Positions 10,058 to 47,683 of a DNA stretch of 64,000 nt are shown here, piece by piece. Position 1 is the stretch's first letter. Every line of letters begins with the position of its first letter. The translations under genes and the position numbers were made by a program. The stretch lies in the IMG/VR virus record IMGVR_UViG_3300032233_002459. One strand, 5' to 3'. This DNA is from an uncultured virus (IMG/VR IMGVR_UViG_3300032233_002459) (Duplodnaviria > Heunggongvirae > Uroviricota > Caudoviricetes). The notes below the pieces were generated by a model. The model had not been told where the DNA came from, made no database searches, and saw only the letters and a program-made list of their open reading frames with translations.

Positions 10058-11062
10058 ATGGCAAATACTAGATTCGAACCGACCGAGCAGCTTACAGAAC
10101 TATTAGTGCAGTCAGGCTCTGCTGAGAAAGAGAAATCTTTAGCAGCTAACAGAGAGTTTGCCAAGGCACTAGAACTTCCATTGCGACAGGCGCTACTCAA
10201 TGGAGATATTCTTAATGGCATATTTGAGCCAATTAAACTTGCTCAAAGTGCTACTCCAGAATTTCCATTGGACTTTTTGGCTCCTGGCACAGAAAAAGAC
10301 TTCGTAGCCTATACCATTCCAAACCACGGGTATATTCCAGAGCGTCATGTTGAGGGTGATTATGTTATGGTTCCAACATATGATATTGGAGCCAGCATCG
10401 ATTATCTTCTAAAGTATGCTCGTGATGCTCGCTGGGACGTTGTTGGTCGTGCTATGGAAGTCCTAGAGGCTCAATTTGTTAAGAAGATGAACGACGACGG
10501 ATGGCATACACTTCTAGCTGCTGGTGTTGATCGTAACATCGTAGTTTATGATAATGATGCTGCCGCCGGTCAGTTCACAAAGAGACTAGTTTCATTAATG
10601 AAAACAGTCATGCGTAGAAATGGTGGTGGTAACTCGGCAAGTAACAATAGAGGTATTTTAACAGATCTCTATGTTTCACCAGAAGCTATGGAAGATATCA
10701 GAAACTGGGGTATTGATCAGGTTGACGAAATCACTCGTCGTGAGATTTATACCGCTGCTGATGGTACTCTTAATAGAGTTTTCGGTATTAATCTACACGA
10801 CCTAGATGAACTTGGCGTTGGTCAAGAATACCAAGAGTTTTATGACAATGTATTAAGCGGCACACTTCCTGGTTCAGATACTGAGCTTGTAGTTGGTCTT
10901 GATCTTCGCAAGAGAGACAGCTTCATTATGCCAGTTCGTCAAGAAGTTCAGATTTTTGAGGATGATACTCTTCATCGTCAAAAGCGCGCAGGCTTCTATG
11001 GTTGGAGTGAGCAAGGCTTTGCGGTTCTTGATAACCGTAGAGTTCTACTTGGATCCCTCTGA
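10058..11062 (+). CDS. Major capsid protein (HK97 fold expected)
   Basis: 334 aa, AGGAG RBS, codon usage shifted toward C-ending codons, terminator follows; C-terminal GFAVLD pattern. Confidence 0.85.
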   Translation: MANTRFEPTEQLTELLVQSGSAEKEKSLAANREFAKALELPLRQALLNGDILNGIFEPIKLAQSATPEFPLDFLAPGTEKDFVAYTIPNHGYIPERHVEGDYVMVPTYDIGASIDYLLKYARDARWDVVGRAMEVLEAQFVKKMNDDGWHTLLAAGVDRNIVVYDNDAAAGQFTKRLVSLMKTVMRRNGGGNSASNNRGILTDLYVSPEAMEDIRNWGIDQVDEITRREIYTAADGTLNRVFGINLHDLDELGVGQEYQEFYDNVLSGTLPGSDTELVVGLDLRKRDSFIMPVRQEVQIFEDDTLHRQKRAGFYGWSEQGFAVLDNRRVLLGSL

Positions 11063-16813: not shown

Positions 16814-17131
16814 ATGAAAAACAATCAAAACAATAGTAGTAGACGACAAATTATTGATCAAATGGAAACTAGATTTAAAACTATTATGATAGGCTCTATA
16901 GCCCGATTTGAAAAAGAATTTGGAGCTTTATGGAATAATAATAATGAACCAACAAATGATCAAGAAGTTTATTTTGGAGATAAATGGGAAGATTTGAGAC
17001 AAGACTTGTTGGATCATGGAAATAATCAAATCCGCCAAGGATTAGAAGAATTGAATATGTATTTAAATAGTGTTGAAAAATATAGATTGCAAGTATTTTA
17101 TAATCAAAATAGGAGACCTAATAATGAGTGA
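16814..17131 (+). CDS. Hypothetical helical protein
   Basis: 105-aa ORF tightly packed in the operon. Confidence 0.6.
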   Translation: MKNNQNNSSRRQIIDQMETRFKTIMIGSIARFEKEFGALWNNNNEPTNDQEVYFGDKWEDLRQDLLDHGNNQIRQGLEELNMYLNSVEKYRLQVFYNQNRRPNNE

Positions 17132-18020
17132 TACTTTTAAGATTAAGACGCAGGATAAAGAAACCACTTTTCTAGTAAAAATGCCTAGCTTACAGAACCA
17201 AAGAGAAGGACAGAAAGTATATAATCAAGCTTTCTCTGATGCTGTTAAGTCTGGTTCTATAGTTAGGGCAAAATTGGACGATCTATTAACAGAGCAAGGA
17301 CTTTGGGATGACACTAAACAGGCTAGATTTTTAACTATTCAAAAAGAATTAAATGATAGTGAAAAAAAGCTGGCTGTTGGAGGCATCTCTCTTAAAGAAG
17401 CCAAAAATGTGGCTATCTCAATGAAGAAGATCAGAGATGAGCTTAGGGACCTTATTTCTGTTAAAACTAATCTTGATACACATACAGCAGAAGGTCAAGC
17501 AGATAATGCTAGATTTAACTATCTAGTTTCGTGTTGTGTGGTGTATAATGATAACAAGAAGACTTATTTTAGTAACTATGAAGATTACCTAAATAGATCT
17601 TCTGATCCTGTTGGGGTCTTGGGTGCTCAAAAATTAGCCTCTATGCTTTATGGCTTAGACTCTGATTTTGAGAAAAAATTACCAGAAAATAAGTTTTTAT
17701 TGGACTATAAGTTTATTAATGAAGATTTAAGATATGTAAATAATAATGGTAAGCTTGTTGATGAAGATGGTAGATTGGTTGATGAAAATGGAAGGTATAT
17801 TAATCAGGAAGGAAAATTTGTTGATAGAGAAGGAAACTTAGTTGATGAAAAGGGTGATTATATTGTAGACTTTAGGCCATTTACTGATGATGATGGTAAA
17901 CCAGTTGTATTGGAAAAATCAAAGAATGATACACCAGCTACTAAAGAAGCAATCGCAGAAGTTGTTAATGAGGCAAAACCAGCCACAGAACCAGCTTCGT
18001 CCCCATCTGTTAATGGCTGA
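17124..18020 (+). CDS. Tail assembly chaperone-like protein B with heptad repeats
   Basis: AGGAG before ATG 17124; last gene before TMP; VDEDGRL-type repeats. Confidence 0.55.
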   Translation: MSDTFKIKTQDKETTFLVKMPSLQNQREGQKVYNQAFSDAVKSGSIVRAKLDDLLTEQGLWDDTKQARFLTIQKELNDSEKKLAVGGISLKEAKNVAISMKKIRDELRDLISVKTNLDTHTAEGQADNARFNYLVSCCVVYNDNKKTYFSNYEDYLNRSSDPVGVLGAQKLASMLYGLDSDFEKKLPENKFLLDYKFINEDLRYVNNNGKLVDEDGRLVDENGRYINQEGKFVDREGNLVDEKGDYIVDFRPFTDDDGKPVVLEKSKNDTPATKEAIAEVVNEAKPATEPASSPSVNG

Positions 18021-18120: not shown

Positions 18121-21100
18121 ATGGCAGCAGCATTTAATTTAACAGCTCAAATTAATTTACGCGGACCAACAAATACACGAGCAATAGCTTCGTCTATTCG
18201 TAAACAACTATCAAATATTAAAGTTAAAGTGGACCTTGATCTTAAAGGATCATCATCAAAAAGTATTGCTGCTGTTAATAAAGGTTTACAAAATATATCA
18301 GCAAATGCAGCAAGAGCTAATACTAATATTAATCAATTAAATGCAAATATTCAAAGATTAGCTGCTAGTCTTGGTGGACTAGGAACATCTGGTCCACAAA
18401 CTTTAGCAGCTACTGGTAAGGCTGCTAGTAGTGCCGGTAAATCTATTAATCAAGTTTCTACACAGATGCAAGAATTCGGCAAGCAATCTGGATTAGCTAT
18501 TCGTCGTTTTGCGGCCTTTAGTACAGTTACTGGTGTTATTTATGGATTAACTAGTGCTGTTAGTAGCGCATATAAAGAATTTATTACATTCGATAAAGAA
18601 ATAGTTAGATTATCTCAAGTTACTGGTACTAGTGTAGCAGGATTGGCTGGAATTACTAGCGAAATTACTAAACTATCAACAGGTCTTGGAGTAGCATCTG
18701 CTGACTTACTACAAGTATCAGTTACTCTGGCTCAAGCAGGCTTATCTGCACAAGATACTAAAACTGCATTAGAAGCACTAGCCAAATCAGCACTAGCCCC
18801 ATCATTTGATGATCTTAATAGTACTGTAGAAGGTAGTATTGCTTTAATGAGACAGTTTGGTATTAGTACAGGAGAATTAGAGGGTGCTTTGGGTAGTATT
18901 AATGCTGTAGCAGCAGCATTTGCTGTTGAAGCTAGCGATATTATTACTGCAATTCAAAGAACCGGTGGAGTATTTGCAAACGCTAGCAAGGGAGTAAGCA
19001 CAGGAACAGAAGCTTTAAATGAATTCGTGGCAATATTTACGAGCGTACGAGCAACTACTCGTGAAAGTGCCGAAACTATTGCTACTGGATTAAGAACTAT
19101 TTTTACTAGAATTCAAAGAGGATCTACCATAGAAGCTTTGAAAGAATATGGCGTTGTTTTAACAGACTTAGAGGGCAAGTTTATTGGGCCATATGAGGCT
19201 GTGCGTAGACTTAGCGAAGGCTTGGCTGGTTTAGATCCTCGTGATTTACGTTTTGCTAAAATTGTAGAAGAGCTTGGTGGCTTTAGACAGATTGGTAAGG
19301 TTATCCCTCTTATACAACAGTTCGCTACCGCACAAAATGCATTGGGGGTGGCTCAAAGAGGTCAGTCATCTCTAAGTAAAAATGCTTTAGAAGCTCAGAA
19401 ATCTCTTGCTGTTCAGTTTGAAAAAACTAGACAATCTTTCGTTGCACTTATTCGTGATGTTGGCAATAGTGGTACATTTAGAACCATAGCAACGATTAGT
19501 CTAACAACAGCTAATGCATTTATCAGTTTGGCTTCAGCACTAAAGCCATTATTACCAATGCTTACGGCATTAGCTGCTATTAAGGGAGCATCTGTTCTTA
19601 GCGAGTTTAGTGCTGGATTTTTAGGTGGTCTTGGTGGTGGCGGAGGAGCCAAGGGAGGTGGTGGCGGAGGTGGTAGTGGTGGCAGCGGAGGTGGTGGTGG
19701 CTCAGGAGGAGGCGGTCGTGGTAAAGGTGGAGCAGCTAGTTCCAAAGCTGTTATTGCTAACACACACGCTATTTCAGCAAATACATCTCAACTATCTACT
19801 GTTAATGCAACACTAGCTACTATGATTAGTAGTTTAAATAATTTAACACAAGCTATAAACAATATGACTCCTCCATCAGCAGGACCAACAACTGCTAATA
19901 GTGGTGGAAAGATTTTGGGTTTTGCTAAGGGAGGATCTGTTCCTGGAACGGGACGAGGAGATAAAGTACCAGCTATGCTTGAGCCAGGCGAAGTAGTAAT
20001 GAGCAATAAAGCTGTAAATAAATACGGACGAGGTAAGTTAGTTAGAATGAATAAATATGCAGTAGGAGGCCCTGTTGATATTGAGGATTTAGAAAATAGA
20101 GATGGTTCATCAACTATTATAGAATCTTATGGTTTACCATATATACAAAAAAAAGATAAAATATTAGGCAATATTAATCGTGAAAATATAACATTCGATC
20201 CCAATTCTACAATTATAAATTGGAAAAAAATAGTTAAGGACACAGATTCTGTATACCAAAGACTTAAAACAGAAAATCCAGATGCAGACACATCCAAGCT
20301 CACCAACGAGGCTTCATCAAAAGCTTTTGAACAAATGATAGCACAAATTAAAGGAGGATCTCTATCAGAACAACCAAATTATCCCGTAGATATCATAAGA
20401 GAAAAAACAAATCCTTTAGAAGTAAAATTTACTAAAGACCCAGTTCCAGATATTGATTTACTTAGTAAATTATATAGATATAGATATGATAAAAAAACTC
20501 TTGGAAGATATGGTTTTACAAAAAATATAGATAAAGACCCACCCATAGACATAGGAGCACTAGACGTTGTTCAAATGGGTCCAAATCAAAAAACAGCTTT
20601 TTCTAGTTGGTATAGCTCAAATAAAAAGAAAATTTTAAATAAAAATTTTGGAGGTCAAATACAAAAATTTATGGCAGGAGGAGTAGCCGAAGCTAGTGAA
20701 GCTATGACACTAGAAGACGCTAAGAAAAAGAGTAGAAAAGAAATTATGGAAATATTGGCTAGTAGGCCAGGAGGTATTTCTACAACAGAAAAAGCAGCGA
20801 AAGTTGGAAGTGGAGAAGTATATAAAATATTAGGACAAAGAAATCCTAATGCTGCTACGGAATCTCTTAAAGAAGCTATATTAAAAGAATATGTTAAAAC
20901 ATATAATAGACAAGCTGGAGCAGCTCAAGGACAAATAACTAGAATGACTAATGAGGGATTAGTAGTTGCTGCTGCTGGTATGTTTGGTAATAAATTTGCA
21001 GATACGACAGAAACAATAGAGTCTTCCAAATTGTCATCGCCTGCTAAAGTAAGAATAATGAGTGGGGTTATGGGTGCTAAAACAGCGGCGTCTCTAGATT

Positions 21101-24100
21101 CCATGTTTAAGCAAGGAACAGAACAAATAACAGACAAAGGAGCAGAAACTCTTTTAATATCAGATATTCTAGAAAAATTTGGACTAGGTAAAGAGCTTAA
21201 TTTAGATTTTGATAGAACTCTAGCTATGGGAGCAGATGAGATTTTATCAGATCCTGGTTCTCCAGTTTTTTCTGAATTTTCTGACAGAAGTAAAGTACAA
21301 GAGGCACTGAAAAAAGCAAGACTAACAGCTCTTGGAGAAGCCCTAGCGTCTTCTGTTAAAGATAGACCAGAGCTACTAGGCTCTACTAAAATAGTAACAG
21401 CTAGACCAGATTCTACATTAGATCTAGTTCAGAGTTGGCTTAGTTCTCAAGGATTACCTATTCCATTATCTCAATTTAAAGGCTTTGGAGGAGCTGGTGT
21501 TAAAGCCGATGATATAGCTAAACTTAAGGCAGCTTTCTTGAGTCCAGGATCCTTATTTGTTGATGATGATGCTAGAAATATAAGTGCTGCTAGTTTAAGA
21601 AAAGATGTTACATCATATCAATATGGAATTGGCAAAAGCTTACCCAATAATCAAGCAGAAGGAGATATTCAAGGACTATTATTAGAACAGATTATACAAA
21701 AGCTTGGCGGCCCAGGAGCATCCAAAGGATTTGGTTTTGACTTTCCAAAAGGATTAGGAGCCGCCGCTAAATATTTTGATTTACCAGATGATATTCCAAC
21801 AGACGTTAAAAGAACAATTAATGGGCCATCAACTATTACAGATAATATAGTAACTTGGCTTAAAAATGTTATGGGTTATGCTAGTGGTGGTAAAGTAGAT
21901 TATTATTCATTAGAAAAAAATAGTGGATTAAATTCTAGAGAATTCGAAGATATAGCAAACTTTGCTAAGACGAATGGTTTTTCTTTGGAAGAATTTAAAA
22001 AATATCTACAACAAAGAATACAGCAGAAACAAGCTAAGTCTGGATTAAGGATGGATCCGGCCAGTCTATTAAGAGCAATTACTCCAGAAACGCCATCAGC
22101 ATCCCAAAAACAAATGGAACTAGCTCGTTCTTTAATGGGGCCAGTTGATCCACAATATAATCCAAAATATGATAATGCTAGAAAATTTGCTGTTGGCGGA
22201 AGTCCCAAGTCTGAAGAATTTGTACAGCAAGGTAATCTTAAATATCTCAGACCTGATGTCATCAGGGCTATGAGAGAAAATTATGGCGAGTCACTCACCG
22301 AAGATCAGGCCGTAGAAGAATTTTTAAGAAAAGACGGAAATTACTTCGTTAACACCGACTTTGGTATTCCTGGTAAAAGTCGTAAGCTTCCCTCATGGTT
22401 AACTCCGTATACGGGACAGTCTGACGCTTTTGATAAAGTACAAGCTAAAAAATATGAGATATCAGATATGGCAGCAAAAAAGAAGGAAAGACAAGGAGTT
22501 TCGGTTGGTGATTTTGAGAGTGGGGCGAGGTTTAACGTCGGCGGTATGATTCAAAAATTTGCTGTTGGTGGTTTAGCAGATGCTACTAGTGAGATGCAGG
22601 GCTTAATGACAGGACTATATGGAAATAGACAAGCTAAAAAACCAGACTCTAAAGCAGATAAGAAACAAAAGAATTTTGGGAAGATAGCTCTTAGAGATGA
22701 AGGACGATCCATAAGCGCCACATACTTTAAAAATGATGAGAGATCTGGTTCTGTTAGTGCTTATAAGATGAGGGATTATTTATATTATGTAGGCTTATCT
22801 CAGGCCACTAAGGGCTATGGTCCTAAATTATATGATGCTGTTATGGAAGCTGTAACGGCAAATGGGGCCATGTTAACTGCTGACAGAGCTAGTGTTAGTG
22901 GAGACGCTAAAAGAGTTTGGGAATATTATTTTAATAATAGAAGTGATGTAAAAAAGACTCCATTAAAACCTGATGATTGGACAAGAAATTCGTCCATGGT
23001 TGATCCTAAACTATATGGTAAAGAAGATACTTGGCCACCAGCTAGTGATCCAGCATGGATATTACAAAGCGGATATAGCAAGAGTCCTGATTTGATCAAC
23101 GATAAAAATTCTGTTATCAGAATGGATCAAGCTCAAGACGCCAGATCAATGGCTCTAGACTTTTTCCGATCCAAACAAACTTTTGCTTCTGGAGGAAGTG
23201 TACCGGCATTAGTTAGTAATGGAGAAGCTTATGTGCCTCCTAAAATTGCTAAAAAAATTGGTTATGGTACATTAAATAGAATGAATCAAGCTGATAAGAA
23301 TGGGATGGGAAGATTTAGTAGTGGAGGTGTTAGTGTATTTAAGGGTCCTGGCAGTGGCACTAGCGATAGTATTTCTACTAATTTACCAGTTGGTAGTTTT
23401 ATTATACGAGAAAAAGCAACAAAAGCACTAGGATTTAATAGTGGTGGAGCAGTTGGTGTCAGAAAATTTGCTTCTGGAGGAAGTGTAGATGCTGATAGAA
23501 TGGACTATTTAAATAGAATAGCTGATAAATTAGGAATTACAGTTCAACAATATGAGCGTAGCGTTAGACAACAAATTTATAAGAAAGCAGCAGGAAGTGC
23601 CACAGCAAAAACATCTTCTCAAACTGATATACAAGATTTATTAACTAAAAATCTTAGTAATATTGGAGACGCTGATGTTGAAAAAGAAACTAGAGAAGGC
23701 TTGACTAATCTTTTTAAGAAAATTGATCCAAAGATAGATGATACAAAATTATCTAAAACTATAGACGATATTGTTGACGGTATGAAAAAAGGATTTTCTG
23801 TATCAGATCTAAAAAATAGCTCAACAGAACTAGAACAAATTTTAAATCAAAATATTACAATACAATCAGAACTTTCTTCTGTTACTGCTGAATTTGAAAA
23901 AGAATTAGGATTTTTAACAGGCAAAATGAAAGTTAGAGGTATTGATGTTAAAGCGCAAAAATCATTACAAGAAGGTAAATTTGGAGCTTTAGAAAAGGGT
24001 AATATTCGACAAGCACAAAGAAATTTAGAATCTCCAACTGGAAAAGTATTAGATAGAATTGGTCAGGCTAATAGTACTGCTAATATACCAGGAATGAAAT

Positions 24101-27100
24101 TACTAGAACGATCATTTCCTAATGTAGCAGATAAATTAACTAAAATGGGTGATAAGGTAGGTGGTATAACTGGTGTTATTGGAGTAGCAGCTTCTCAATT
24201 AAGTTCTCAGATGCCTACTATTCTTAGTACATTAGATCATTTTGCTGGGACTGTTTCAGAAACTAGTCCCGCTATATCTGGTTTACAAGGAGCATTAAAA
24301 AGCGCTAGTAGTTTTGGTTTAAGCGGATCTATTGTTGGTCAACAAGCTTTTGGCGCTAAAGGAGCTGCTGTTGGCGGAGCAGTAGGCTTGGCTGGTGGAG
24401 CAGTTTCTGGTTTTATTAAAGAGTCAACGGCCAAAGAAGTAGAAATGGCCATGAAAGGAGTTAGTGGAGCATCTAATACACTATCTAAAACATTAGACGA
24501 ATTAGCTAATGCTAGAACGTTCGCAGAAAGAGAGGAGCTTCAAGATAGAGCAAATAAAAATTATGAAGCTTTAAATGTTGCATTAGAAACATCTGCTAAA
24601 ACTATAAAAGATAATAGAGTATGGAGTGCTGTTTCTGGTGGATTAGAAGGATTTCTAAGCACTCTAACAACTGTTATAGGAATGATGGCCGCAGTAAATA
24701 TGAGTGGAGGTGGTTTTGGCGCTGGTGCTGGTGGAGGCGGTGGCAAAGGACCAAAACCCAGAAGAAAGCCACGAAAAGCTATTGGCGGTAGAGTAGGACT
24801 AGCTACCGGAGGACTCGTTCCTGTTAAATTAGCTAGCGGAGAAGGAGTTTTTACTCCACCATTACCAACCAGTAAAAATGAATTAGACCAAATGAATCAG
24901 GCTGATAGAAATGGATATAAGCCATCATTTGGTGGACAAATGGGTATAGTTCCTGGTAGTGGTAGTGGCAAAGTTGATAATTTTGATACTATGTTACCAG
25001 AAGGTTCGTATGTTATAAGAACAGATGCTATGAAAGCTATGAACGAACAAGATATATTTGCCGCTAAGGGAGGCAGAATATCTCGTCAAGGATTATCATT
25101 AGGAGGAAGAGTACAATCTTTTGCTAGTGGAGGAGGAGTTAGAGGATATGCTGCTGGTGGATTAGTATTAAAGCTTATAGGCGGAGCTATTAAACAATTA
25201 GGTCCATATTTAGCAGCTGCTTTTGCGGGCTCAATTGTTGAAGGATTTACTGCTTACTTAGATAATTCTACCGAAAAAGAAAGACTAAAAGCAGAGGTAG
25301 AGAGTTTACAGCAATTAAGAAGAATAGCAGATAATAGCGAGGCTTTTGCAACAGGAAATAAGGGTTATGCCGAAAGGGTGATGACACTCAGTGAACCTAT
25401 TGAAAAAGCATCAATGACAGCTGACCAAAGACTATCAGCATATGGTCGTAGCAGAGATAGTTCTGGCAGATTAAATTCTCTCAATATACTACAAGAGCAA
25501 CAAGCTAGAACGTCTCTTAGTGCAGAAGGTATGAACGTTAGTGATAGTCAGAGTGTGCAAGAATATTTAGATAGTTTGGGGGAAGGTACAGAAAAACGTA
25601 AAAAGGCTGATGCGGCAGTAATTAAGGCTCAAGAAAGATTAAGACAAAGAATCTATTTAGAAGCTAGACAAAGACAAGGATTTAGCGAAGATGTTGCGGC
25701 TAAAGAATATAGATCAGCACAATTTGATGATAAGGGTGGAGCAAAGAATAAGGCTGCTCAAGATGTAAATACCCTTGTGGAAAGAGAGGTTGGTCGTGAA
25801 AATAGATCTAGAATATTAGCTGATAGATTAGAAATAGTTAATAGAGCTGTTAAAAAATTTACATTAGATATTACTGATGTAATGAATAGATTATCTTCTA
25901 ATATGACTCGAATTGTTGATGAAATTGGGGCTAGCGCTGATAGGGCTAATAGTGTTTCTGGTGAGTTGTCCGGATCTGGCGCTAAAGCTTACTCTGGAGA
26001 TTCAGAAAATTTAAGAGTATTACAGAATATAAGTGCTTATAGTAAAGAAGAGCTTGGTTCTGCTGTTGACAGTATCAGTAAAGGATTGGGAGATAATGAA
26101 CAAACGCAGAAGATGGGTGACTTTATCAAGGGTCTTCAAGTTATTCAGCAGGAGTTGCCTTTGATTCTTAGAGATACTGCTGGTGGCAATATCAATGAGG
26201 GAGCAGAATCTAATGTAAGATCAAAACTTGGTCAAATGTTTGGTGGATTAGATATGAGTCCAGAGATCCGTCGCCAGTTAGAGGATAGTGTTATGGATTG
26301 GATTCAGGCTAGTACTTCCATGAATAGACAAGGCATGACTATGGAAGATTTAGCTAATAATGTTGAGGGTTTTAAAGAACTAAGTGATGCTGGTGAAAAA
26401 GCCAGACAAACTTTTGAGGAATATGCTAGAAAACAACTTGAAGTTAATCGTCAACTTGGGGCTATGTCGGATAATTTAGCTACAAGTTTTGAGAAATTAG
26501 CAGATAATACCATTAAGGTTCAAGACATATCCCTCCAGTCAGCATTACAGCTTAAAGAAAAGTTTGGTCAAACCATATCCCTAAGAGAAATGAATGCACC
26601 GTTCGAATCTTCTGTAAGAGGATTAACTGGAGGAATAACTGATCCAGCAGCCATAGGTAAACAAATATCAGAAGCTATAGCACAAAAAAGAGTATTAGAA
26701 AGTGATCCTAGTAAAGCTACAAGCGCACTAGGCTCTGGGCAAATAGCTGGCTTAACGTCAAAAATAAATAAATATCAAAGAGCTTTGGATGTTTTAGCAA
26801 ATAGTACTGATAGAGCATCATCAGCACTTAAGAAGATCGATGAACAATCACAAATATCTGCTGGTCGTCGTCGTAGCGTAATGGATTTCTTTGGTATGTT
26901 AGATAATCCAGAAGCTATGATAAATTTTAATAAAGAAACTAGTTCCTATAACAGAGTTATGGGTGGCGCAGGAGGAGTTGGGGATATTCAAGGCGCTCTA
27001 TCGACACTACAATCATTAGAGGGATCAAGAAGTCCAGAAGAATTTGCTAATTTACAAAAACAATTATTTGATAATATAACAAGAGTACTTGGCAATAGTG

Positions 27101-30100
27101 GAATGGATCCGGTTCTTATTGACACATTCAAAAAAACTTTTGCTGCTGACTTTGGAAAACCACAAGATAATCCTCAGATAAAACCATTTATTGATGCGTT
27201 CAATGAGGCGGCAAAGATTCAATCAGATGCTGTTAGAGCACAATCTGATTTAATATCTCAAGGCGGTCAGCTATTATCCAATGCCCTAGCAGCATCTGCA
27301 ACAGATTTTACTACCAAAATGAGAACAGCCGTAGATGGGGTGGTTGCTCAATTAAATGCTGTAGCCAATAGATTAGGATTAGCAGGAGCGGCTCCTGCGG
27401 CTGGCGGAAGAGCCAAGGGTGGTATTGTAGGTTATTATTCTATGGGAGATATGGTTAGTTTTACTCCTCAAGGCACAGATACTGTACCGGCAATGTTAAC
27501 TCCTGGAGAATTTGTAGTTAATAGAGCTGCTACTAGTAAACATTTACCATTATTGCATAGTATTAATAGTGGCAAATATAGTAGTGGTGGTAAAGTAAAA
27601 TATCTTGCTGCTGGTGGCCGTGTACCAGGAGCGCCAGAATTTGATCTTGGTACGACCACAGAATATAGAGAAGAGAATAGTTTTGGAAATAGAAGTATTT
27701 CTACATTATCTCAGCTACAGTATGAATCCAGATATGGTGTGCCAGGAGTTAGGGATAATGTAAAAATGATTTCTGATGATATGTATGATTCTCTTAAAAA
27801 TAGGTCTACAGAAGAGTCAAGATTAAGACAAGAAGGGACTCCTATGCTTTATCATGACGAAAGCACAAGGGGTAAGATTAAAAAAGCCAATCAATTAAAA
27901 CTCAATAAAAAACAATATACAGAATTATCTATTGGAGAAACAGAGCGTAGAATACCTCTTTATCAAAGACAAACAGCAGAATATTATCCGAATGGAGCAG
28001 ATTTTGATCATAGAGCATTTGATCAAAAGATGTTAGATTATAAAGACTTACCCACACTAAATTATCTAAATGTAGATATTCGTTCAAATAAACAAAAAAT
28101 CGCAGCTGTTAGTCAGGCCATGCAAACTAGAGATGGTTTTCCAGACTTATTGGCAAAGTATTTATTAGGTTTAAAAGAGTATGAAAGCACATGGGCAAGT
28201 ATGGGACTTGGTATGGCTTTAGATTTAGAGAATCTAGTTCCTGGTTCTGTAACTGCTGATGCTGGCCCAATGATTGCTAGTAAAGCATTAGGATGGTTAA
28301 GTAAAAATACAGGTATAACAAAAGGCATATCTACTGCTATTAAAAAAGGGGCTACAACTCCTCTTGGTAAATTAAAACAAGCTAGTACTAAGGACTCGGG
28401 TATTGGTAGAATCTCAGCTAAAGATTTAGGTTTGCCAGAGTTTGCCCCTGCCAGCCCAGCAGCTTCTACCAAAGCAAAACCTCCTAAACCAACTAGTGGA
28501 TTTGATAGAGTTATACAAATAACAGATGATGTTAAAAGTCTTATTGGTAGACTTCAGTCAGAAACTGGCAGTAAACTAGCATCTAGTTTTAATAAGTTAG
28601 GTGCTGATAATTTATTACAAAATACAAGGAATGCGTTGGGTATTTTTGGTATAAATCCAGAAGATTTCTACTTAGCTATGCCAGATTCTATTAAAGTAGC
28701 CCCCAGTCTTAAAGATATGAGAGGATACTATGCTGCTAATAAAGGAGCATATAGCGGCTTAGGAGATGTAGTAATACAAAAAGATGTTACTGCAAAAACC
28801 CTGTATCATGAAATGGTACATAGCTTATTTGATGGAGTAAGGAAAAAGGGTGGTGGAGCTTGGGAAAGATATCAATCTAAAGTTATGGAAGTTTTTAGTG
28901 GCAATGATCCTTATAAACTTACTGATGCCATAGCACAGTATAGCGATAGCTATAAAGCACAAGATATTGTTTATGGTAAATATTATAAATTAAAATGGTT
29001 AGATGATTTAACTAATGGCGTTAAAAATAAAGACCTAAGAGAGAAAATTTTAGATACATATCCGGAACTTCAAAATTTCTTTAGAAATCCAAAGAATATG
29101 AATATTCCATATGATACTAATTTTGATAGAATCGTTGGTGGCGCTTTAGAGTTAAGCGGTAGACCAGAATTATTAAAAACTGCTAGTGGTTATGGTATGG
29201 AGGAGTTTTTAACTAAGTTGGTTGATAGTTCTAATTTAATGAGTAATCAGCAGCGACTAGGATTAAGTAAAATATTAGATGATTTATTAGCAGGGCCTCC
29301 CCAAACCTTAAGAGATAATAGCGTTTTGGCTAGTCTTAATACTCCAACAAAATGGGAAGTATTAAAACAACAGTGGACAAGAGTTACAGATCCATTAAGA
29401 AGAATGGTCTCTCCACGAAAATCTACGCCAACAACCCCTAAAGCCACAACTGCTCCACCAACCACCACAGGCACATCGGCTGGAGGAGGCACTCCAAGAA
29501 CAGGATCTCCTGGAGCACGAACTACTGGTCAGCCGCCGGTTCCTCCCAAACCAAGACCAAAAACAAAATCAAATAGAGGAGGCTCATCATCTACTTCAAC
29601 AAGATCACGCTCGGGTAAATCATGGTCTGATTATTTAGCTAGTAAGTTTGATGATACTAAACAATGGTTAAGTGGAGGAGATGGACCATGGACCTCAAGG
29701 GCTAGCACATGGCTTGGAAGAATCTCGAATGGATACTTTCTTGGTAGTCTTGGGGTAGGAGCAGGCACATCCTTATGGCCCTGGATTACTGGGAATAGTT
29801 CGTTACCACCAGATGCTAGTTCTTCGTCAGATTCTTCTAGGCCAACAGGTGGCCCACTACCGCCCCCAGCGTTTGATCCAAAACAAGATCCAGTTGCCGA
29901 TATAAAATATGCTACTGAATTTGCTAGAAAATTTGCTACAACAAATACATCTGCAAAAGACGCATTTACTAGTGATGATGGTAAATATAAATTTGGCCAA
30001 GTATTAAGAGCGGCCAAAAACTTAGGACTAAAAGATCCTATGGGTGTTACTGATTTTAGAGTACGAAGCGCTACTATACCATCATACGAAGCAGGAGATG

Positions 30101-33100
30101 GCTCAGACAAGGGAATACTATTAAGTGCAAAAGAAAGAGCAGATAAAGAATTAGAACTTAAAGAACTAGAAAAATCTATAGCAGATGCTGGGGATTATAA
30201 TCTAGATAATGATCCCAATATGCGTACGATAGTTGGTCGTAGAGATCAACTACGCAGACAATTACGAGGAGATTATAGAGCACAAGTTAATATGGGTATT
30301 CCTACTGGAGAAGGTGGAGGTCCGCCAAAGTTTAGTATGGTTGCTCCTAGAATACCGCAACCAGAAGATTTTGGTTTTTCATCTCTTGATAAATATAATG
30401 ATGAATATATTTTTAATCTTAATAAAAGACCATATAAAAATATTGTTAGTAAAGCAATGTCTAGTGCATATTTAAAAGATTATACTGAGCTAGAGAAACA
30501 GAGAGCTATTATTGGCTCACCTATTGCAGACACCAGCTCGGGCGCTGCTCAAACTAATGGAGATAATTTAAAACAATATAAAACTAATTTTGAGCAAATA
30601 CAGGCCGAGGCGGCTGATGCTGGTTTATTAAATGCTGGTAGTATTTTAAATAAATTTAATAGTCTTAAGAAATCATATTTAAATGATTTTGGACCAGTGG
30701 ATGGTGTTGATGCTAATGATATACCACTTGCTCCTGGGGCTAAGGAAACAGCAAATTCTCAAGGAGAAGCTATTAGACAACACTTAATGAGTAAATTAGG
30801 AGATACTAATTTTACGAAACAGCCTTTTAAAGGAAAAGGTTCTGTTTCTGGTGTTACAAAAGAGGATCAAGATAAAGCTAGAGCAGTTATGGCTGATATG
30901 GTTACCAGATACGGAGTATCAGGAAGTACTGATGAAGACAAACAGTCTCAGCTAGCGTCTTATCTTCAGAATATGTCTAGTAAGGATAGAAGAATTATTG
31001 ATTCTGATAAAGCATGGGGTTCTTTTGATAATAATATAAAATCATATAACGATCAGCTAGAAAAATATTGGATAATTAGAGCACGATATGAGAACAGAGA
31101 TACTCTTAAAAATGATCCTTTAAGTATGATGGAAGGATCTCCTGTTATTGACCCCAAAATCAGAGATGCTAAATTAGCTGAGGTTAGAAAAATAGATGAT
31201 ACTATTAGAGATTTACAAAAACAACCTGGAGGAGCACCAGACAAAGAAGAAATTGAAAGAAAAATAGCTGAAAAACAAAAGATTTTAGATGATCTATATG
31301 GTGGTTCTGGCGGAGCAAAGTTTAAATCCGTACCATCAATGGATTATCTATTATTTAATGATCCTGCTGATACTAGTCGTATCAATCCATTTAAATATTT
31401 TACTGATAAATCAAACGTTTACGGACTACCTAACACGAAAAATACTTCTGGAGCACAAATATATGCTAATCAAACCAATGAAGTTATTAAACAATTATTA
31501 AGCTCATATGGCACTGCTTTCGGAATAAAAGCCCCAACACCAAATAATAATGAGGAATTTCAAAAGTGGATCAAAGGTATTGATTCTGAAAAAGCTACTA
31601 GTTTACCATCAAGCTCTGTGAATAAAAATTGGAAGCTCGATAAATTACAAAATATGTATAGTTTAGCTGGTAGTGACGATACTAATTGGGCTGGTAAGTT
31701 TGGGCTTTGGAGCTTCAATAATGAAGAAAATGCTTACGATAGTAATTTTGCAGAAAATTATAAAACTAAATTTTTACAAAAAGCTCGTGACTATCTGATA
31801 CAAAAGAGTGAACAAATTTCTGGCGAGCAAATTAATCTACCTAAAAATACTACTAATTATCTTAAAGCTATAGATGCTATGTCATTATATAGTGGTAAAA
31901 TGGATAGAAATATATATGGTAAAGTTAATGGCGGTTTTGGAGCATTAAATATTAGTAAAAAATTAGAGGGCGCCAATGAAGAGGACAAAGCAAATAATTT
32001 ATATAGACAAATTAGTCGCTCATATAACGCGTGGAGAAGATCCAATGTAGATAAAATATTTGGTGGTATTACAACAGCCGATTTACCACGATGGAAGACA
32101 GTAGATGATAAATACCAGTTCCCCGGTAGTCCAGAAGAACTAAGATCGGCCGTCACAACAGATATTGATACATTGGAAAGAATTAAAAATCTAGATACCT
32201 ATGTAATAGACAGCATTCTTAGTGGAGCAGGACCAGCTCAAATGAGATCTGTTAGTGGTTTTGGTAATCTATTAGCCGCTGGTAATGTTGCTATAGGAGA
32301 AGCTGGAGCTACTGGATTAGAAGGTGTAACAGGAGAAACTAAGCTTTTGGATCTTTTAGCACAAACTTTAAATTTTAGCAATCCACACCTTGTACAAGAT
32401 AGGCAGGCTAAATTACAGTTTGTTATAGATAAAGATTTATCTAGTAATTTAAAAAATAAAATATATTCTAAGGATGAGCCTCAGTTGGATTCTAATTTAC
32501 ATATATTATCAGGAGCATATAATTTATGGGATTCTTTAAAGAGTTATGGAGTAGATCCTAATACCAGAATACCAACAGTTAATATTATTGATTCTGATAG
32601 CGGACAACTAGAATCAATTATTGGCGGAGCAAATAAAGAGGCTATGATTGGCAATAAACCTATTAGGCTTGATACTAATTTTGTTTCCAATTATCTTAAC
32701 GAATTTAGTGATTATCAAGACGAATACGATACAGTTAGATCAGCAATGGACAAAATATCCAAATCAGCAGCTAATACTGGACAGCAAAATATTGCTGGAC
32801 TCATAGGCACTGCTACCCCATTTCAAAATGCAGCCTATATACAGGCACAAAAAATGATTGATATACAATCACTAGAAAATAAGCCAACACCAGCTACTGA
32901 TGCAGCATCAACAGATGGTACTAATAAACCACAGTATAGGGCTAAAGGAGGAATGATTTATGCTAGTACTGGAGCATTAGTAAATTATGCGCCCCGAGGC
33001 ACAGATACTGTTCCAGCCATGTTGACTCCTGGAGAATTTGTGATTAATAGACAATCAACAGCCAAACATTTACCATTACTTAAAGCAATTAATAGTGGTT

Positions 33101-33588
33101 CAGTAGAAGGTAGTACTAATGGTATATCTTATGCTAGGTCTGGTGGTATTATTAATCCTATATATAGATTTGATGGTGGAACTAGCGTTATGGGTGCCGT
33201 TCAGTCTATGGGTAAAGCTATGGGATTTGATACTAGTGGAATTAGTTCAGTTTTTAATAATTTTATTACCTCCTTTAATACCGAAACAAATAATTTTGGA
33301 TCATTAATTAATAATCTAGCTAAGGTTTTTCCAGCTTTAGGTGGTCCAGTTAGCGCTTTTGGTGGCCATGTTGATAAATTGGTCAAAGCACTTAATGATC
33401 TTAAGTCTATAGAGATTAAGGGACCAAACATTCCTGATACTATTACTGTTAATAGTGATACTATAAGAGTAGAATTAATAGCGCCTCAAGATACTAATTA
33501 TAAATTAAGCGATGAAGATAAACGACAAATAACACAAGCCTTAGAGACTAAATTAAGAACATTAACTACAATGGGTAGAATTGCATAA
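18121..33588 (+). CDS. Giant tape measure protein with embedded enzyme-like domains
   Basis: N-terminal TMP core (TLAQAG...GTEALNEF...TGLRTIFTRI), canonical position; repeated FAxGG and DTVPAMLTPGEFV modules; HAD, GNAT, PD-(D/E)xK and HExxH motifs. Confidence 0.9.
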   Translation: MAAAFNLTAQINLRGPTNTRAIASSIRKQLSNIKVKVDLDLKGSSSKSIAAVNKGLQNISANAARANTNINQLNANIQRLAASLGGLGTSGPQTLAATGKAASSAGKSINQVSTQMQEFGKQSGLAIRRFAAFSTVTGVIYGLTSAVSSAYKEFITFDKEIVRLSQVTGTSVAGLAGITSEITKLSTGLGVASADLLQVSVTLAQAGLSAQDTKTALEALAKSALAPSFDDLNSTVEGSIALMRQFGISTGELEGALGSINAVAAAFAVEASDIITAIQRTGGVFANASKGVSTGTEALNEFVAIFTSVRATTRESAETIATGLRTIFTRIQRGSTIEALKEYGVVLTDLEGKFIGPYEAVRRLSEGLAGLDPRDLRFAKIVEELGGFRQIGKVIPLIQQFATAQNALGVAQRGQSSLSKNALEAQKSLAVQFEKTRQSFVALIRDVGNSGTFRTIATISLTTANAFISLASALKPLLPMLTALAAIKGASVLSEFSAGFLGGLGGGGGAKGGGGGGGSGGSGGGGGSGGGGRGKGGAASSKAVIANTHAISANTSQLSTVNATLATMISSLNNLTQAINNMTPPSAGPTTANSGGKILGFAKGGSVPGTGRGDKVPAMLEPGEVVMSNKAVNKYGRGKLVRMNKYAVGGPVDIEDLENRDGSSTIIESYGLPYIQKKDKILGNINRENITFDPNSTIINWKKIVKDTDSVYQRLKTENPDADTSKLTNEASSKAFEQMIAQIKGGSLSEQPNYPVDIIREKTNPLEVKFTKDPVPDIDLLSKLYRYRYDKKTLGRYGFTKNIDKDPPIDIGALDVVQMGPNQKTAFSSWYSSNKKKILNKNFGGQIQKFMAGGVAEASEAMTLEDAKKKSRKEIMEILASRPGGISTTEKAAKVGSGEVYKILGQRNPNAATESLKEAILKEYVKTYNRQAGAAQGQITRMTNEGLVVAAAGMFGNKFADTTETIESSKLSSPAKVRIMSGVMGAKTAASLDSMFKQGTEQITDKGAETLLISDILEKFGLGKELNLDFDRTLAMGADEILSDPGSPVFSEFSDRSKVQEALKKARLTALGEALASSVKDRPELLGSTKIVTARPDSTLDLVQSWLSSQGLPIPLSQFKGFGGAGVKADDIAKLKAAFLSPGSLFVDDDARNISAASLRKDVTSYQYGIGKSLPNNQAEGDIQGLLLEQIIQKLGGPGASKGFGFDFPKGLGAAAKYFDLPDDIPTDVKRTINGPSTITDNIVTWLKNVMGYASGGKVDYYSLEKNSGLNSREFEDIANFAKTNGFSLEEFKKYLQQRIQQKQAKSGLRMDPASLLRAITPETPSASQKQMELARSLMGPVDPQYNPKYDNARKFAVGGSPKSEEFVQQGNLKYLRPDVIRAMRENYGESLTEDQAVEEFLRKDGNYFVNTDFGIPGKSRKLPSWLTPYTGQSDAFDKVQAKKYEISDMAAKKKERQGVSVGDFESGARFNVGGMIQKFAVGGLADATSEMQGLMTGLYGNRQAKKPDSKADKKQKNFGKIALRDEGRSISATYFKNDERSGSVSAYKMRDYLYYVGLSQATKGYGPKLYDAVMEAVTANGAMLTADRASVSGDAKRVWEYYFNNRSDVKKTPLKPDDWTRNSSMVDPKLYGKEDTWPPASDPAWILQSGYSKSPDLINDKNSVIRMDQAQDARSMALDFFRSKQTFASGGSVPALVSNGEAYVPPKIAKKIGYGTLNRMNQADKNGMGRFSSGGVSVFKGPGSGTSDSISTNLPVGSFIIREKATKALGFNSGGAVGVRKFASGGSVDADRMDYLNRIADKLGITVQQYERSVRQQIYKKAAGSATAKTSSQTDIQDLLTKNLSNIGDADVEKETREGLTNLFKKIDPKIDDTKLSKTIDDIVDGMKKGFSVSDLKNSSTELEQILNQNITIQSELSSVTAEFEKELGFLTGKMKVRGIDVKAQKSLQEGKFGALEKGNIRQAQRNLESPTGKVLDRIGQANSTANIPGMKLLERSFPNVADKLTKMGDKVGGITGVIGVAASQLSSQMPTILSTLDHFAGTVSETSPAISGLQGALKSASSFGLSGSIVGQQAFGAKGAAVGGAVGLAGGAVSGFIKESTAKEVEMAMKGVSGASNTLSKTLDELANARTFAEREELQDRANKNYEALNVALETSAKTIKDNRVWSAVSGGLEGFLSTLTTVIGMMAAVNMSGGGFGAGAGGGGGKGPKPRRKPRKAIGGRVGLATGGLVPVKLASGEGVFTPPLPTSKNELDQMNQADRNGYKPSFGGQMGIVPGSGSGKVDNFDTMLPEGSYVIRTDAMKAMNEQDIFAAKGGRISRQGLSLGGRVQSFASGGGVRGYAAGGLVLKLIGGAIKQLGPYLAAAFAGSIVEGFTAYLDNSTEKERLKAEVESLQQLRRIADNSEAFATGNKGYAERVMTLSEPIEKASMTADQRLSAYGRSRDSSGRLNSLNILQEQQARTSLSAEGMNVSDSQSVQEYLDSLGEGTEKRKKADAAVIKAQERLRQRIYLEARQRQGFSEDVAAKEYRSAQFDDKGGAKNKAAQDVNTLVEREVGRENRSRILADRLEIVNRAVKKFTLDITDVMNRLSSNMTRIVDEIGASADRANSVSGELSGSGAKAYSGDSENLRVLQNISAYSKEELGSAVDSISKGLGDNEQTQKMGDFIKGLQVIQQELPLILRDTAGGNINEGAESNVRSKLGQMFGGLDMSPEIRRQLEDSVMDWIQASTSMNRQGMTMEDLANNVEGFKELSDAGEKARQTFEEYARKQLEVNRQLGAMSDNLATSFEKLADNTIKVQDISLQSALQLKEKFGQTISLREMNAPFESSVRGLTGGITDPAAIGKQISEAIAQKRVLESDPSKATSALGSGQIAGLTSKINKYQRALDVLANSTDRASSALKKIDEQSQISAGRRRSVMDFFGMLDNPEAMINFNKETSSYNRVMGGAGGVGDIQGALSTLQSLEGSRSPEEFANLQKQLFDNITRVLGNSGMDPVLIDTFKKTFAADFGKPQDNPQIKPFIDAFNEAAKIQSDAVRAQSDLISQGGQLLSNALAASATDFTTKMRTAVDGVVAQLNAVANRLGLAGAAPAAGGRAKGGIVGYYSMGDMVSFTPQGTDTVPAMLTPGEFVVNRAATSKHLPLLHSINSGKYSSGGKVKYLAAGGRVPGAPEFDLGTTTEYREENSFGNRSISTLSQLQYESRYGVPGVRDNVKMISDDMYDSLKNRSTEESRLRQEGTPMLYHDESTRGKIKKANQLKLNKKQYTELSIGETERRIPLYQRQTAEYYPNGADFDHRAFDQKMLDYKDLPTLNYLNVDIRSNKQKIAAVSQAMQTRDGFPDLLAKYLLGLKEYESTWASMGLGMALDLENLVPGSVTADAGPMIASKALGWLSKNTGITKGISTAIKKGATTPLGKLKQASTKDSGIGRISAKDLGLPEFAPASPAASTKAKPPKPTSGFDRVIQITDDVKSLIGRLQSETGSKLASSFNKLGADNLLQNTRNALGIFGINPEDFYLAMPDSIKVAPSLKDMRGYYAANKGAYSGLGDVVIQKDVTAKTLYHEMVHSLFDGVRKKGGGAWERYQSKVMEVFSGNDPYKLTDAIAQYSDSYKAQDIVYGKYYKLKWLDDLTNGVKNKDLREKILDTYPELQNFFRNPKNMNIPYDTNFDRIVGGALELSGRPELLKTASGYGMEEFLTKLVDSSNLMSNQQRLGLSKILDDLLAGPPQTLRDNSVLASLNTPTKWEVLKQQWTRVTDPLRRMVSPRKSTPTTPKATTAPPTTTGTSAGGGTPRTGSPGARTTGQPPVPPKPRPKTKSNRGGSSSTSTRSRSGKSWSDYLASKFDDTKQWLSGGDGPWTSRASTWLGRISNGYFLGSLGVGAGTSLWPWITGNSSLPPDASSSSDSSRPTGGPLPPPAFDPKQDPVADIKYATEFARKFATTNTSAKDAFTSDDGKYKFGQVLRAAKNLGLKDPMGVTDFRVRSATIPSYEAGDGSDKGILLSAKERADKELELKELEKSIADAGDYNLDNDPNMRTIVGRRDQLRRQLRGDYRAQVNMGIPTGEGGGPPKFSMVAPRIPQPEDFGFSSLDKYNDEYIFNLNKRPYKNIVSKAMSSAYLKDYTELEKQRAIIGSPIADTSSGAAQTNGDNLKQYKTNFEQIQAEAADAGLLNAGSILNKFNSLKKSYLNDFGPVDGVDANDIPLAPGAKETANSQGEAIRQHLMSKLGDTNFTKQPFKGKGSVSGVTKEDQDKARAVMADMVTRYGVSGSTDEDKQSQLASYLQNMSSKDRRIIDSDKAWGSFDNNIKSYNDQLEKYWIIRARYENRDTLKNDPLSMMEGSPVIDPKIRDAKLAEVRKIDDTIRDLQKQPGGAPDKEEIERKIAEKQKILDDLYGGSGGAKFKSVPSMDYLLFNDPADTSRINPFKYFTDKSNVYGLPNTKNTSGAQIYANQTNEVIKQLLSSYGTAFGIKAPTPNNNEEFQKWIKGIDSEKATSLPSSSVNKNWKLDKLQNMYSLAGSDDTNWAGKFGLWSFNNEENAYDSNFAENYKTKFLQKARDYLIQKSEQISGEQINLPKNTTNYLKAIDAMSLYSGKMDRNIYGKVNGGFGALNISKKLEGANEEDKANNLYRQISRSYNAWRRSNVDKIFGGITTADLPRWKTVDDKYQFPGSPEELRSAVTTDIDTLERIKNLDTYVIDSILSGAGPAQMRSVSGFGNLLAAGNVAIGEAGATGLEGVTGETKLLDLLAQTLNFSNPHLVQDRQAKLQFVIDKDLSSNLKNKIYSKDEPQLDSNLHILSGAYNLWDSLKSYGVDPNTRIPTVNIIDSDSGQLESIIGGANKEAMIGNKPIRLDTNFVSNYLNEFSDYQDEYDTVRSAMDKISKSAANTGQQNIAGLIGTATPFQNAAYIQAQKMIDIQSLENKPTPATDAASTDGTNKPQYRAKGGMIYASTGALVNYAPRGTDTVPAMLTPGEFVINRQSTAKHLPLLKAINSGSVEGSTNGISYARSGGIINPIYRFDGGTSVMGAVQSMGKAMGFDTSGISSVFNNFITSFNTETNNFGSLINNLAKVFPALGGPVSAFGGHVDKLVKALNDLKSIEIKGPNIPDTITVNSDTIRVELIAPQDTNYKLSDEDKRQITQALETKLRTLTTMGRIA
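19624..19731 (+). repeat. Poly-glycine linker (GGN codon run) in TMP
   Basis: GGLGGGGGAKGGGGGGGSGGSGGGGGSGGGGRGKGG. Confidence 0.9.
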
Positions 33589-46060: not shown

Positions 46061-46061
46061 A

Positions 46062-47672: not shown

Positions 47673-47683
47673 TATGTATATAT

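Follow-up and report, generated by a model that had tools for sequence, protein, structure and literature searches.

The stretch of DNA considered here (the window; 64,000 nucleotides (nt) from an uncultured virus of the Caudoviricetes, IMG/VR record IMGVR_UViG_3300032233_002459) encodes, at positions 18121..33588 of the + strand, a tape measure protein (TMP) of 5,155 amino acids (aa). Its chain consists of an N-terminal core followed by cassettes and long ruler-like stretches that are set apart by copies of a conserved joint module. The joint is homologous to a module of gpH, the TMP of phage lambda, and among relatives of the protein the cassettes are gained, lost and permuted at the joints. 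The protein is probably a real TMP of an uncultured long-tailed phage that doubles as a carrier of ready-made enzymes, that is, a 'polyvalent' tape measure. Judging from what TMPs do, the cassettes would be delivered into the host, and they may be enzymatically active.

The gene and its N-terminal core

The open reading frame (ORF) is the sole long frame in its region and runs uninterrupted over 5,155 codons, i.e., 15.5 kb without any stop codon at a G+C content of 30-39%. Near-identical copies of the gene are found on the independent metagenome contigs L023, L024 and L026, and the architecture as a whole recurs at 86-99% identity on these contigs and in the relative P0002. That the frame is an artefact, a product of mis-assembly or fusion that exists as a protein in no phage, has the uncultured source of the window as its sole ground. 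Against this stand the recurrence of the same build, the 83 giant relatives and the hundreds of multi-module representatives described below, and the absence of stop codons at this G+C content, and we regard an artefact as hardly credible.

A first-pass annotation, made from the sequence alone, had described a TMP with a normal core followed by a poly-Gly linker. The open frame and the family matches agree with it. PF10145 is matched with 83 bits (cut-off 33.2), which places the protein among TMPs with a TP901-type core; TIGR01760 is matched at aa 140-451 (E 5.8e-22, 78.2 bits, cut-off 28.8), and the TMP families 28, 4211, 794 and 1533 of PHROGs match the same N-terminal part. The features of this part are:

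18661..19275, + strand: TP901-type TMP core (aa 181-385), PF10145 with E 3.4e-23
19486..19740, + strand: hydrophobic stretch with hydropathy peaks at aa 456-494, then a poly-Gly run seen in the translation (together aa 456-540)

A repeated joint module

The remainder of the chain is marked by pentapeptides ending in GG. All 18 that the first-pass annotation had listed are present on the + strand, starting at the following positions:

FAKGG 19921, YAVGG 20056, FMAGG 20668, YASGG 21877, FAVGG 22186, FNVGG 22531
FAVGG 22558, FASGG 23182, FSSGG 23314, FNSGG 23434, FASGG 23467, LATGG 24799
FASGG 25120, YAAGG 25147, RAKGG 27409, YSSGG 27577, LAAGG 27604, RAKGG 32938

The total of about 25 given there is roughly right, as a looser pattern finds 22 sites, three of them inside Gly runs. 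The strict pattern [FY][ASNM]xGG occurs 14 times, compared to 0.87 +/- 0.87 expected from 500 shuffles (maximum 4). The excess extends to the family: [FYW]xxGG is found 1,028 times in the protein and its 83 relatives, versus 174 expected, and exceeds twice the protein's own expectation in 83 of these 84 proteins. Around GG the residues are biased, with a 4-fold enrichment of F/Y and a 2.3-fold enrichment of A before it, and V, M or I after it.

Tiling the protein against itself reveals that these motifs are the edges of a repeated joint module of ~45-70 aa, present in seven copies (alignment A6). The module consists of an opening [FY]AxGG, a variable loop, the core (D/T)xVPAxLxxGExV, a short helix and a closing [FY]AxGG. 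In two copies, each the second member of a tandem pair, GE is replaced by GS. The copies are located as follows:

19921..20070, + strand: copy 1 (aa 601-650), FAKGG...PAMLEPGEVV...YAVGG; internal repeat in A6; phrog_35029 matches at aa 601-688
23182..23481, + strand: copies 2 and 3 (aa 1688-1736 and 1732-1787), internal repeats in A6
24799..25161, + strand: copies 4 and 5 (aa 2227-~2280 and ~2280-2347), repeat of aa 1688-1789 with E 1e-14; in A6
27409..27618, + strand: copy 6 (aa 3097-3166), RAKGG...PAMLTPGEFV...LAAGG
32938..33150, + strand: copy 7 (aa 4940-5010), in A6; the TMP families phrog_25241 and phrog_7025 match

Copies 6 and 7 are 69% identical over their first 55 aa (E 9e-24) and 55% identical over 84 aa (E 5e-25). 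Motifs outside the modules (aa 850, 1253, 1356 and 1471/1480) are single or doubled and take the form xxxGG-x4-K[FY]AxGG. The joints also carry exact nucleotide repeats of 15, 16 and 21 nt, the longest at 23182 and 23467.

A profile of the module, searched against 1.84 billion representative sequences, finds 20,154 proteins with E <= 0.001, 3,982 with E <= 1e-10 and 697 with E <= 1e-30. All of the best 150 measure 2,289-7,872 aa and match the profile in 4-11 stretches. AlphaFold2 (AF2) models the module as a beta-hairpin and two helices, with a predicted local distance difference test (pLDDT) of 44-72. A complex prediction for three copies of module 6 scored 0.01 against a mark of 0.42, which speaks neither for nor against self-association. 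Within the AF2 model of aa 651-1790, the one model that covers several cassettes, all nine motifs lie in coil or at pLDDT below 50 and no predicted secondary-structure element spans one. In this respect the model agrees with the borders proposed in the first-pass annotation.

Cassette turnover among relatives

Apart from the N-terminal core, the chain consists of the following cassettes and longer stretches:

20071..20667, + strand: cassette S1 (aa 651-849), closed by FMAGG at 20668-20682; AF2 pLDDT mostly <50
20683..21876, + strand: cassette S2 (aa 855-1252), closed by YASGG; contains a HAD phosphatase-like domain
21145..21645, + strand: HAD-fold domain within S2 (aa ~1009-1175); AF2 pLDDT 80-95 at aa ~1011-1170
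21892..22185, + strand: cassette S3 (aa 1258-1355), helical, closes at KFAVGG; AF2 helices with pLDDT 53-71
22201..22572, + strand: cassette S4 with its closing motif (aa 1361-1484), a presence/absence polymorphism
22573..23181, + strand: cassette S5 (aa 1485-1687), an autonomous conserved domain, 30-97% identical in the relatives that have it
23482..24798, + strand: segment S6 (aa 1788-2226), with a second hydrophobic stretch and a Gly-rich run at its end
25162..27408, + strand: segment S7 (aa 2348-3096), long, ruler-like, rich in helix-forming residues
27619..29400, + strand: cassette S8 (aa 3167-3760), with the protein's sole HExxH at aa 3563-3567 (28807-28821)
29401..29820, + strand: low-complexity linker (aa 3761-3900), of Pro/Thr/Ser/Gly-rich composition
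29821..32937, + strand: segment S9 (aa 3901-4939), 1,039 aa without a joint
33151..33585, + strand: conserved C-terminal tail (aa 5011-5155)

A word-indexed search provided 83 relatives, all of them giant proteins (2,932-7,794 aa). The relative P0002 has 97-99% identity where it aligns; the remaining ones are 40-82% identical in the N-terminal core and match in patches elsewhere. Among GenBank phages, megablast of the whole gene returned no close relative, and tblastn of aa 1-600 returned a single weak match, to the TMP of Rhodococcus phage Reynauld (25% identity). We counted a segment as present in a relative when a BLAST high-scoring segment pair (HSP) covered more than half of it. By this count S0 is present in 78 of the 83 relatives, S1 in 29, S2 in 47, S3 in 16, S4 in 5, S5 in 40, S6 in 13, S7 in 59 (mostly at 25-29% identity), S8a in 2, S8b in 16, S9 in 6-9 and the C-terminal tail in 33. 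The cassette content therefore varies widely, and an invariant content, a possible objection to a modular build, is refuted.

For several cassettes the exchange can be located to the joint itself. S4 is flanked by direct repeats that encode KFAVGG (22183-22200 and 22555-22572) and have an exact run of 15 nt in common. In L023, which is 96-99% identical over the aligned stretches, precisely the 124 residues aa 1361-1484 between the two KFAVGG motifs are absent, and the sequence reads KFAIGG directly followed by LADAT; P0002 has the same gap. In L031, S2 leads via YAEGG directly to S5, without S3 and S4. The unit around HExxH precedes S5 in L002, L012, L025, L020 and L029 and follows it in the window's protein. 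At 16 distinct viral loci that carry this unit, joints are found, by the pattern used, at -241 to -272 and at +171 to +186 relative to HExxH in 13 of 16 cases, and a fourteenth locus, L048, has YGAGG at the flank position in the alignment; the flanking joints are missing at the copy in the window and at L036. The first-pass annotation had proposed a modular protein with the motifs at cassette borders, and with S4, with S3 and S4 together and with the flanks of the HExxH unit, cassettes are indeed gained or lost exactly at the motifs.

Two further observations concern the HExxH unit. The 140-residue linker at aa 3761-3900 occupies the place of the joint that follows the unit in relatives, and has no homologous HSP in any of them. 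The copy at L037:2380-3447 tracks that of L036 to about its middle; from there it departs from it and ends, which would fit a frameshift or a truncation.

Taken together, the HAD domain, S5 and the HExxH unit occur in 12 combinations of presence and order in the 84 proteins, eight of which lack all three. The HAD cassette occurs in 52 copies in 50 proteins. A closing motif is found 150 to 320 aa downstream in 48 of the 52 copies (median +229.5), an opening motif 100-300 aa upstream in 28, and a motif within the core in three.

The joint in lambda gpH and the cut in T5 pb2

Lambda gpH has one FATGG...GEFV...YATGG unit at ~aa 733-790, as the first-pass annotation had stated; a hydrophobic stretch with a Gly-rich run behind it directly precedes this unit. 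An hhalign comparison of A6 with gpH gives a probability of 82% (E 1e-5) at gpH 733-776, and we conclude that the modules are homologous. In the Pfam copy searched, gpH is covered by TMP_2 (54-256) and Tape_meas_lam_C (627-701), and the module region is uncovered. Both proteins thus have a hydrophobic stretch, a Gly-rich run and FAxGG...GExV...YAxGG in the same order. They differ in that gpH (853 aa) is free of cassettes and has a single module, compared to seven modules in 5,155 aa, and in their N-terminal cores, which belong to TMP_2 and Tape_meas_lam_C in lambda versus PF10145 here.

It is known that gpH is cut in its Gly-rich region into gpH* (about aa 1-710) and gpHC. The latter is retained in the virion, bound to gpI through residues 818-849, and the stretch ~690-817 lacks a resolved structure there; as of 2025, neither the precise cut site nor the catalyst had been identified (PMC12617516). 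Residues 818-842 are found in the tail tip (PMC10721106). The module of gpH falls in gpHC, beside the only known cut of lambda.

In pb2, the TMP of phage T5, cleavage occurs after R1127, with a hydrophobic stretch on one side and a muralytic metallopeptidase motif on the other (PMC10038345). In the T5 record this R is followed by AEGG, giving a string similar to RAKGG at the start of module copies 6 and 7. Comparing the module with pb2 by hhalign indicates no relation (probability 0.2%), and the likeness therefore amounts to five residues matched by eye, a lead only. The cut of pb2 during tail assembly, a feature of T5, separates a ruler from an enzymatic part, and in this combination of parts pb2 resembles the protein considered here (PMC10038345); it differs in having a single small C-terminal domain and no array of cassettes.

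Enzyme-like cassettes

Two AF2 models were calculated, one of aa 651-1790 (17-row alignment from loci, mean pLDDT 49.6) and one of the HExxH unit (mean pLDDT 47.3). The best-defined cassette is S2, whose domain has a HAD fold with intact catalytic motifs. Foldseek searches of the modelled domain against PDB and against BFVD concordantly identify a Rossmann-like HAD fold. Motif I is D1029-F-D1031-R-T1033, motif II T1093 and motif IV D1148-D1150. Among the homologues reached by the alignment these are kept in 47 of 48, 48 of 48 and 42 of 42 cases, respectively, the remaining six stopping short of motif IV. The domain is carried by 48 of the 83 relatives, and its catalytic residues are retained down to 31% identity. 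The closest folds are phosphatases acting on nucleic acid ends and on nucleotides, not wall enzymes. The nearest is the 3'-phosphatase domain of T4 Pnkp (14% sequence identity); in contrast to T4 Pnkp, no kinase domain is identified beside the HAD domain, and it is embedded in a virion protein instead of being a free early enzyme. The HAD cassette is a credible enzyme, presumably a phosphatase.

The HExxH unit in S8 is a lead for a zincin-like metallopeptidase. Its residues would fit: all 20 of 20 aligned homologues keep H, E and H, a downstream GKEEF is conserved, and E407 and E408 within GKEEF are nearly invariant, making them candidates for a third ligand. AF2 predicts an all-alpha structure for aa ~3563-3724 (pLDDT 51-87), with HExxH at the start of a helix. 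The model, mostly of low confidence, gave no fold match, and the profile (A3) gave no row in PDB; a zincin fold is thus a candidate only.

S5 is possibly GNAT-like, again as a lead. In the ESM Atlas it is closest to viral proteins of 160-195 aa (0.94-0.95), and in one of these clusters PF00583 is assigned to 13% of the members. Searching the members of its alignment (A4) individually against Pfam gives Acetyltransf_16 in 3 of 19 (E 0.15); otherwise, such per-member scans of A5 and A4 gave weak scattered rows only. The A4 profile finds just one chance row among PDB sequences (E 1.1). AF2 predicts strands and helices with pLDDT 55-79. The core of S5, G[YFW]GPxLY[DE]...VW E.Y, is also found free-standing, in ORFs of ~180 aa (L032:1300-1845, L033:334-879 and L034:705-1244) and in an ORF of 283 aa (L022:8355-9203). 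These contigs are unrelated metagenome and viral sequences, which indicates an independent viral protein family.

For S1, the nearest named clusters in the ESM Atlas are all restriction endonuclease families, at 0.84-0.85 and hence under the 0.9 level; with an AF2 pLDDT of ~30 there, a PD-(D/E)xK nuclease is a weak lead. Of the catalytic motifs named in the first-pass annotation, HAD is therefore supported by fold and motifs and HExxH as one invariant site, and the proposed GNAT and PD-(D/E)xK segments stand as weak leads only.

Some relatives carry a further type of cassette. In P0077 an ADP-ribosyltransferase domain (PF03496, E 1.6e-24) begins ~20 residues downstream of a module, and in P0065 such a domain (E 2.8e-6) ends ~40 residues short of YAVGG; a precomputed table of the source assigns PF03496 to 3 of the 83 relatives. 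The same table assigns PF28597 to P0004, P0005, P0006 and P0082; the Pfam copy searched here is without PF28597 (zero families for P0082).

Ruler-like stretches and the C-terminus

S6 has hydropathy peaks at aa 2081-2099 and 2174-2192. S7 consists of 49% helix formers and 10% Pro plus Gly. S9 has no match in the scans against Pfam, NCBIfam and PHROGs. The C-terminal tail is presumably a tip-proximal anchor, judging from gpH 818-849 and the C-terminus of T5 pb2.

Genomic context

The window represents a phage genome. The genes on the + strand follow the order terminase, portal, capsid and TMP, with a replication module on the - strand:

3649-5676, + strand: terminase, upstream of the TMP gene
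5732-7954, + strand: portal, upstream of the TMP gene
10058-11062, + strand: capsid (weak match), upstream of the TMP gene

Downstream of the TMP gene lie large ORFs without annotation. Among the window ORFs scanned, no family matches were found for tube, chaperone or tail-tip genes. Directly upstream of the TMP gene, two ORFs overlap in different frames (16814-17131, + strand, 105 aa, and 17070-18020, + strand, 316 aa). Their position would fit a tail assembly chaperone made by frameshifting; neither was matched in the family scans.

Elsewhere in the window, a family-A DNA polymerase is encoded on the - strand in two ORFs, namely 50688-52580, corresponding to positions 43-618 of phrog_405, and 48221-49828, corresponding to positions 621-1060. 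Between them lies an ORF of 233 aa (49825-50526) with a match to the RNase_T exonuclease family (E 1.4e-8). Two neighbouring glycosyltransferase genes (phrog_2170) are found at 44951-47702 (- strand), and three HNH or homing endonuclease genes are dispersed over the window (2257-2529 on the + strand, 42265-43062 and 60983-61573 on the - strand). The window also encodes PhoH, a MazG-like pyrophosphatase, the large subunit of a ribonucleotide reductase and a protein with sigma-70 region 2 (821-1444).

Discussion

The role that we favour for the protein can be outlined as follows. The chain comprises, in this order, the TP901 core, a hydrophobic stretch with a Gly run, autonomous cassettes and helical ruler-like stretches, and a conserved C-terminal part that is presumably an anchor. 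During assembly it would set the length of the tail and fill the lumen of the tube. During infection it would be expelled ahead of the DNA, as TMPs are, so that the cassettes may reach the envelope or the cytoplasm. The putative cargo would comprise the HAD phosphatase, the HExxH unit and S5, and in relatives also ADP-ribosyltransferase. Since the joint peptide is conserved, its coding DNA contains identities of 15-21 nt, and these may be the places where phages insert, delete and permute cassettes. The first-pass annotation had likewise seen a delivery vehicle for effectors, with the GG motifs as processing sites; at least one credible enzyme cassette (HAD) is in line with it, and the motif has turned out to be the edge of a module instead of a bare site.

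Several observations weigh against such a role. Scans of the protein, in five overlapping pieces, against Pfam, NCBIfam and PHROGs gave zero enzyme families, and just one cassette, HAD, folds confidently in the two AF2 models. S6 and S7 (~1,200 aa), and perhaps more of the chain, resemble a plain ruler. The lumen of a tail tube is only a few nanometres wide, presumably too narrow for three or six copies of folded domains of 160-400 aa, which must then travel unfolded or lie elsewhere; the cassettes would pass in extended form and fold later, or be released by cutting. Homology breakpoints across the family lie within 15 aa of a motif in 781 of 6,217 clusters (12.6% versus 6.9% expected) and elsewhere in the remaining 87%; these are clustered endpoints of HSPs of at least 150 aa, which are not independent, and the enrichment is real but modest. 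For the window's protein alone, 334 of 870 HSP endpoints lie within 12 aa of a motif (by clusters, 16 of 94), compared to 7.5% by coverage, a figure that is inflated by paralogous matches between modules. The joints are therefore preferred points of exchange, not the sole ones. Finally, the tail of phage P74-26 is nearly 1 um long (PMC10034513) and its TMP has 5,006 aa; size alone thus needs no cargo. The same phage weakens an argument of the first-pass annotation, namely that 5,155 aa would imply a tail of ~770 nm at 0.15 nm per residue.

P74-26 also speaks for the alternative of a plain ruler, in which all residues only measure a tail of ~0.7-0.8 um and the enzyme-like parts are incidental passengers or act solely on the cell wall during penetration. 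TMPs with local wall-degrading motifs are described for TM4 and for T5 (PMC10038345), and the ruler-like character of S6 and S7 points the same way. The TMP of P74-26 is built differently, however: it contains none of the [FYW][ASNMTC]xGG motifs and none of the module cores, has no BLAST similarity to the window's protein, and was rejected as its relative. Moreover, the catalytic residues of the HAD domain are kept in relatives of as little as 31% identity and its closest folds are not wall enzymes, and the ADP-ribosyltransferases of relatives belong to a type of enzyme that acts inside the cell in known phages, such as T4 Alt (PMC7824862). We consider a mere ruler improbable.

The remaining alternatives concern the joints themselves and bear on whether the chain stays whole. 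They could well be purely structural, i.e., hinges or docking points in the tube on a chain that remains intact save perhaps for one lambda-like cut; this is quite possible, though short of probable. Partners might then be an assembly chaperone, the tube lumen or neighbouring TMP chains, and the evolutionary role of the joints would be that of a recombination hot spot. In favour of this are the conserved core with its predicted beta-hairpin and helices, the occurrence of the module in 20,154 representatives including one copy in an ordinary TMP such as that of lambda, and the exact identities of 15-21 nt at the joints with the S4 deletion between them. The enzyme of phage P23-45 is described as a TMP fusion, and its text has 'proteoly' 0 times and 'cleav' once, the latter for an expression tag (PMC10770324). 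Against it, the module of lambda falls in the region of gpH, ~690-817, that is not resolved in the virion, and so is not an ordered symmetric contact there (PMC12617516).

Alternatively, the protein is a true polyprotein, cut after assembly at each joint to release at least eight effectors in the host, a reading that is possible but lies on the doubtful side. It is consistent with the cut of gpH within the Gly-rich sequence that adjoins its one module (PMC12617516), the site-like bias of the motifs and their position in predicted linkers, and R-AEGG at the cut of pb2 recalls RAKGG of copies 6 and 7 (PMC10038345). The invariant HExxH cassette could be the protease, and a zincin peptidase is predicted to free domains in polyvalent proteins (PMC5512222). 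On the other hand, the comparison with pb2 argues against a relation and the bond cut in T5 precedes AxGG instead of following GG. The HExxH unit occurs by BLAST in just 16 of 83 relatives, so it is no universal processing enzyme, and it has no recognisable zincin fold; a scan of the other 44 window ORFs gave no protease family. A bare site would also not need a folded-looking module with the conserved core PAxLxxGExV. In its strongest form, in which the [FY]AxGG module is a portable maturation element, each joint is cut after tail assembly, the agent being either the module or a protease of host or phage that reads it, and a true polyprotein frees at least eight effectors into the host ahead of the DNA, this reading would explain the cuts of both gpH and pb2; taken as a whole it seems rather unlikely. 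Cleavage is also compatible with the polyvalent tape measure that we favour: its joints might in addition be cut after assembly, given that the TMPs of lambda and T5 are cut close by, and to this we attach less than even confidence.

Parts of such a protein have precedents. Gp96 of P23-45 is a TMP of 5,002 aa whose N-terminal part is the virion RNA polymerase, thought to be injected, an arrangement that its authors call 'a previously unsuspected association' (PMC10770324). It is similar in being a giant TMP whose enzyme is believed to reach the host via the tail, and differs in having one N-terminal enzyme, whereas here the TMP core is N-terminal and several swappable cassettes follow; we note that joint motifs were compared with the TMP of P74-26, its counterpart, only. 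Polyvalent proteins of phages and conjugative elements (Iyer et al. 2017) are giant multidomain proteins delivered together with the DNA, with domains such as ADP-ribosyltransferase, GNAT and a zincin peptidase predicted to free them (PMC5512222, PMC7824862). The window's protein is likewise giant and mosaic, with unrelated domains of effector type (HAD, the HExxH unit and S5, and ADP-ribosyltransferase in relatives). The polyvalent examples from phages are head-packaged or N4-type, a conserved joint module is not among their features, and 'tape measure' occurs 0 times in the text (PMC5512222). A literature search, with subscription journals mostly outside its scope, found no description of joint-delimited cassette arrays in TMPs. 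Enzyme-bearing TMPs (P23-45, T5) and polyvalent proteins are already published, and the conserved joint is uncatalogued.

TMPs are usually viewed as passive rulers that line the conduit for DNA. In the phage described here and hundreds of uncultured relatives, the TMP appears as a modular carrier of enzymes. As the joint is common to lambda gpH, it provides a defined element by which the old question of gpH cleavage becomes testable in the most tractable phage. Provided that delivery takes place, proteins of this kind would add to the head-packaged ones another large route by which ready-made proteins for counter-defence or takeover reach the host, and would be a rich, uncatalogued source of such enzymes.

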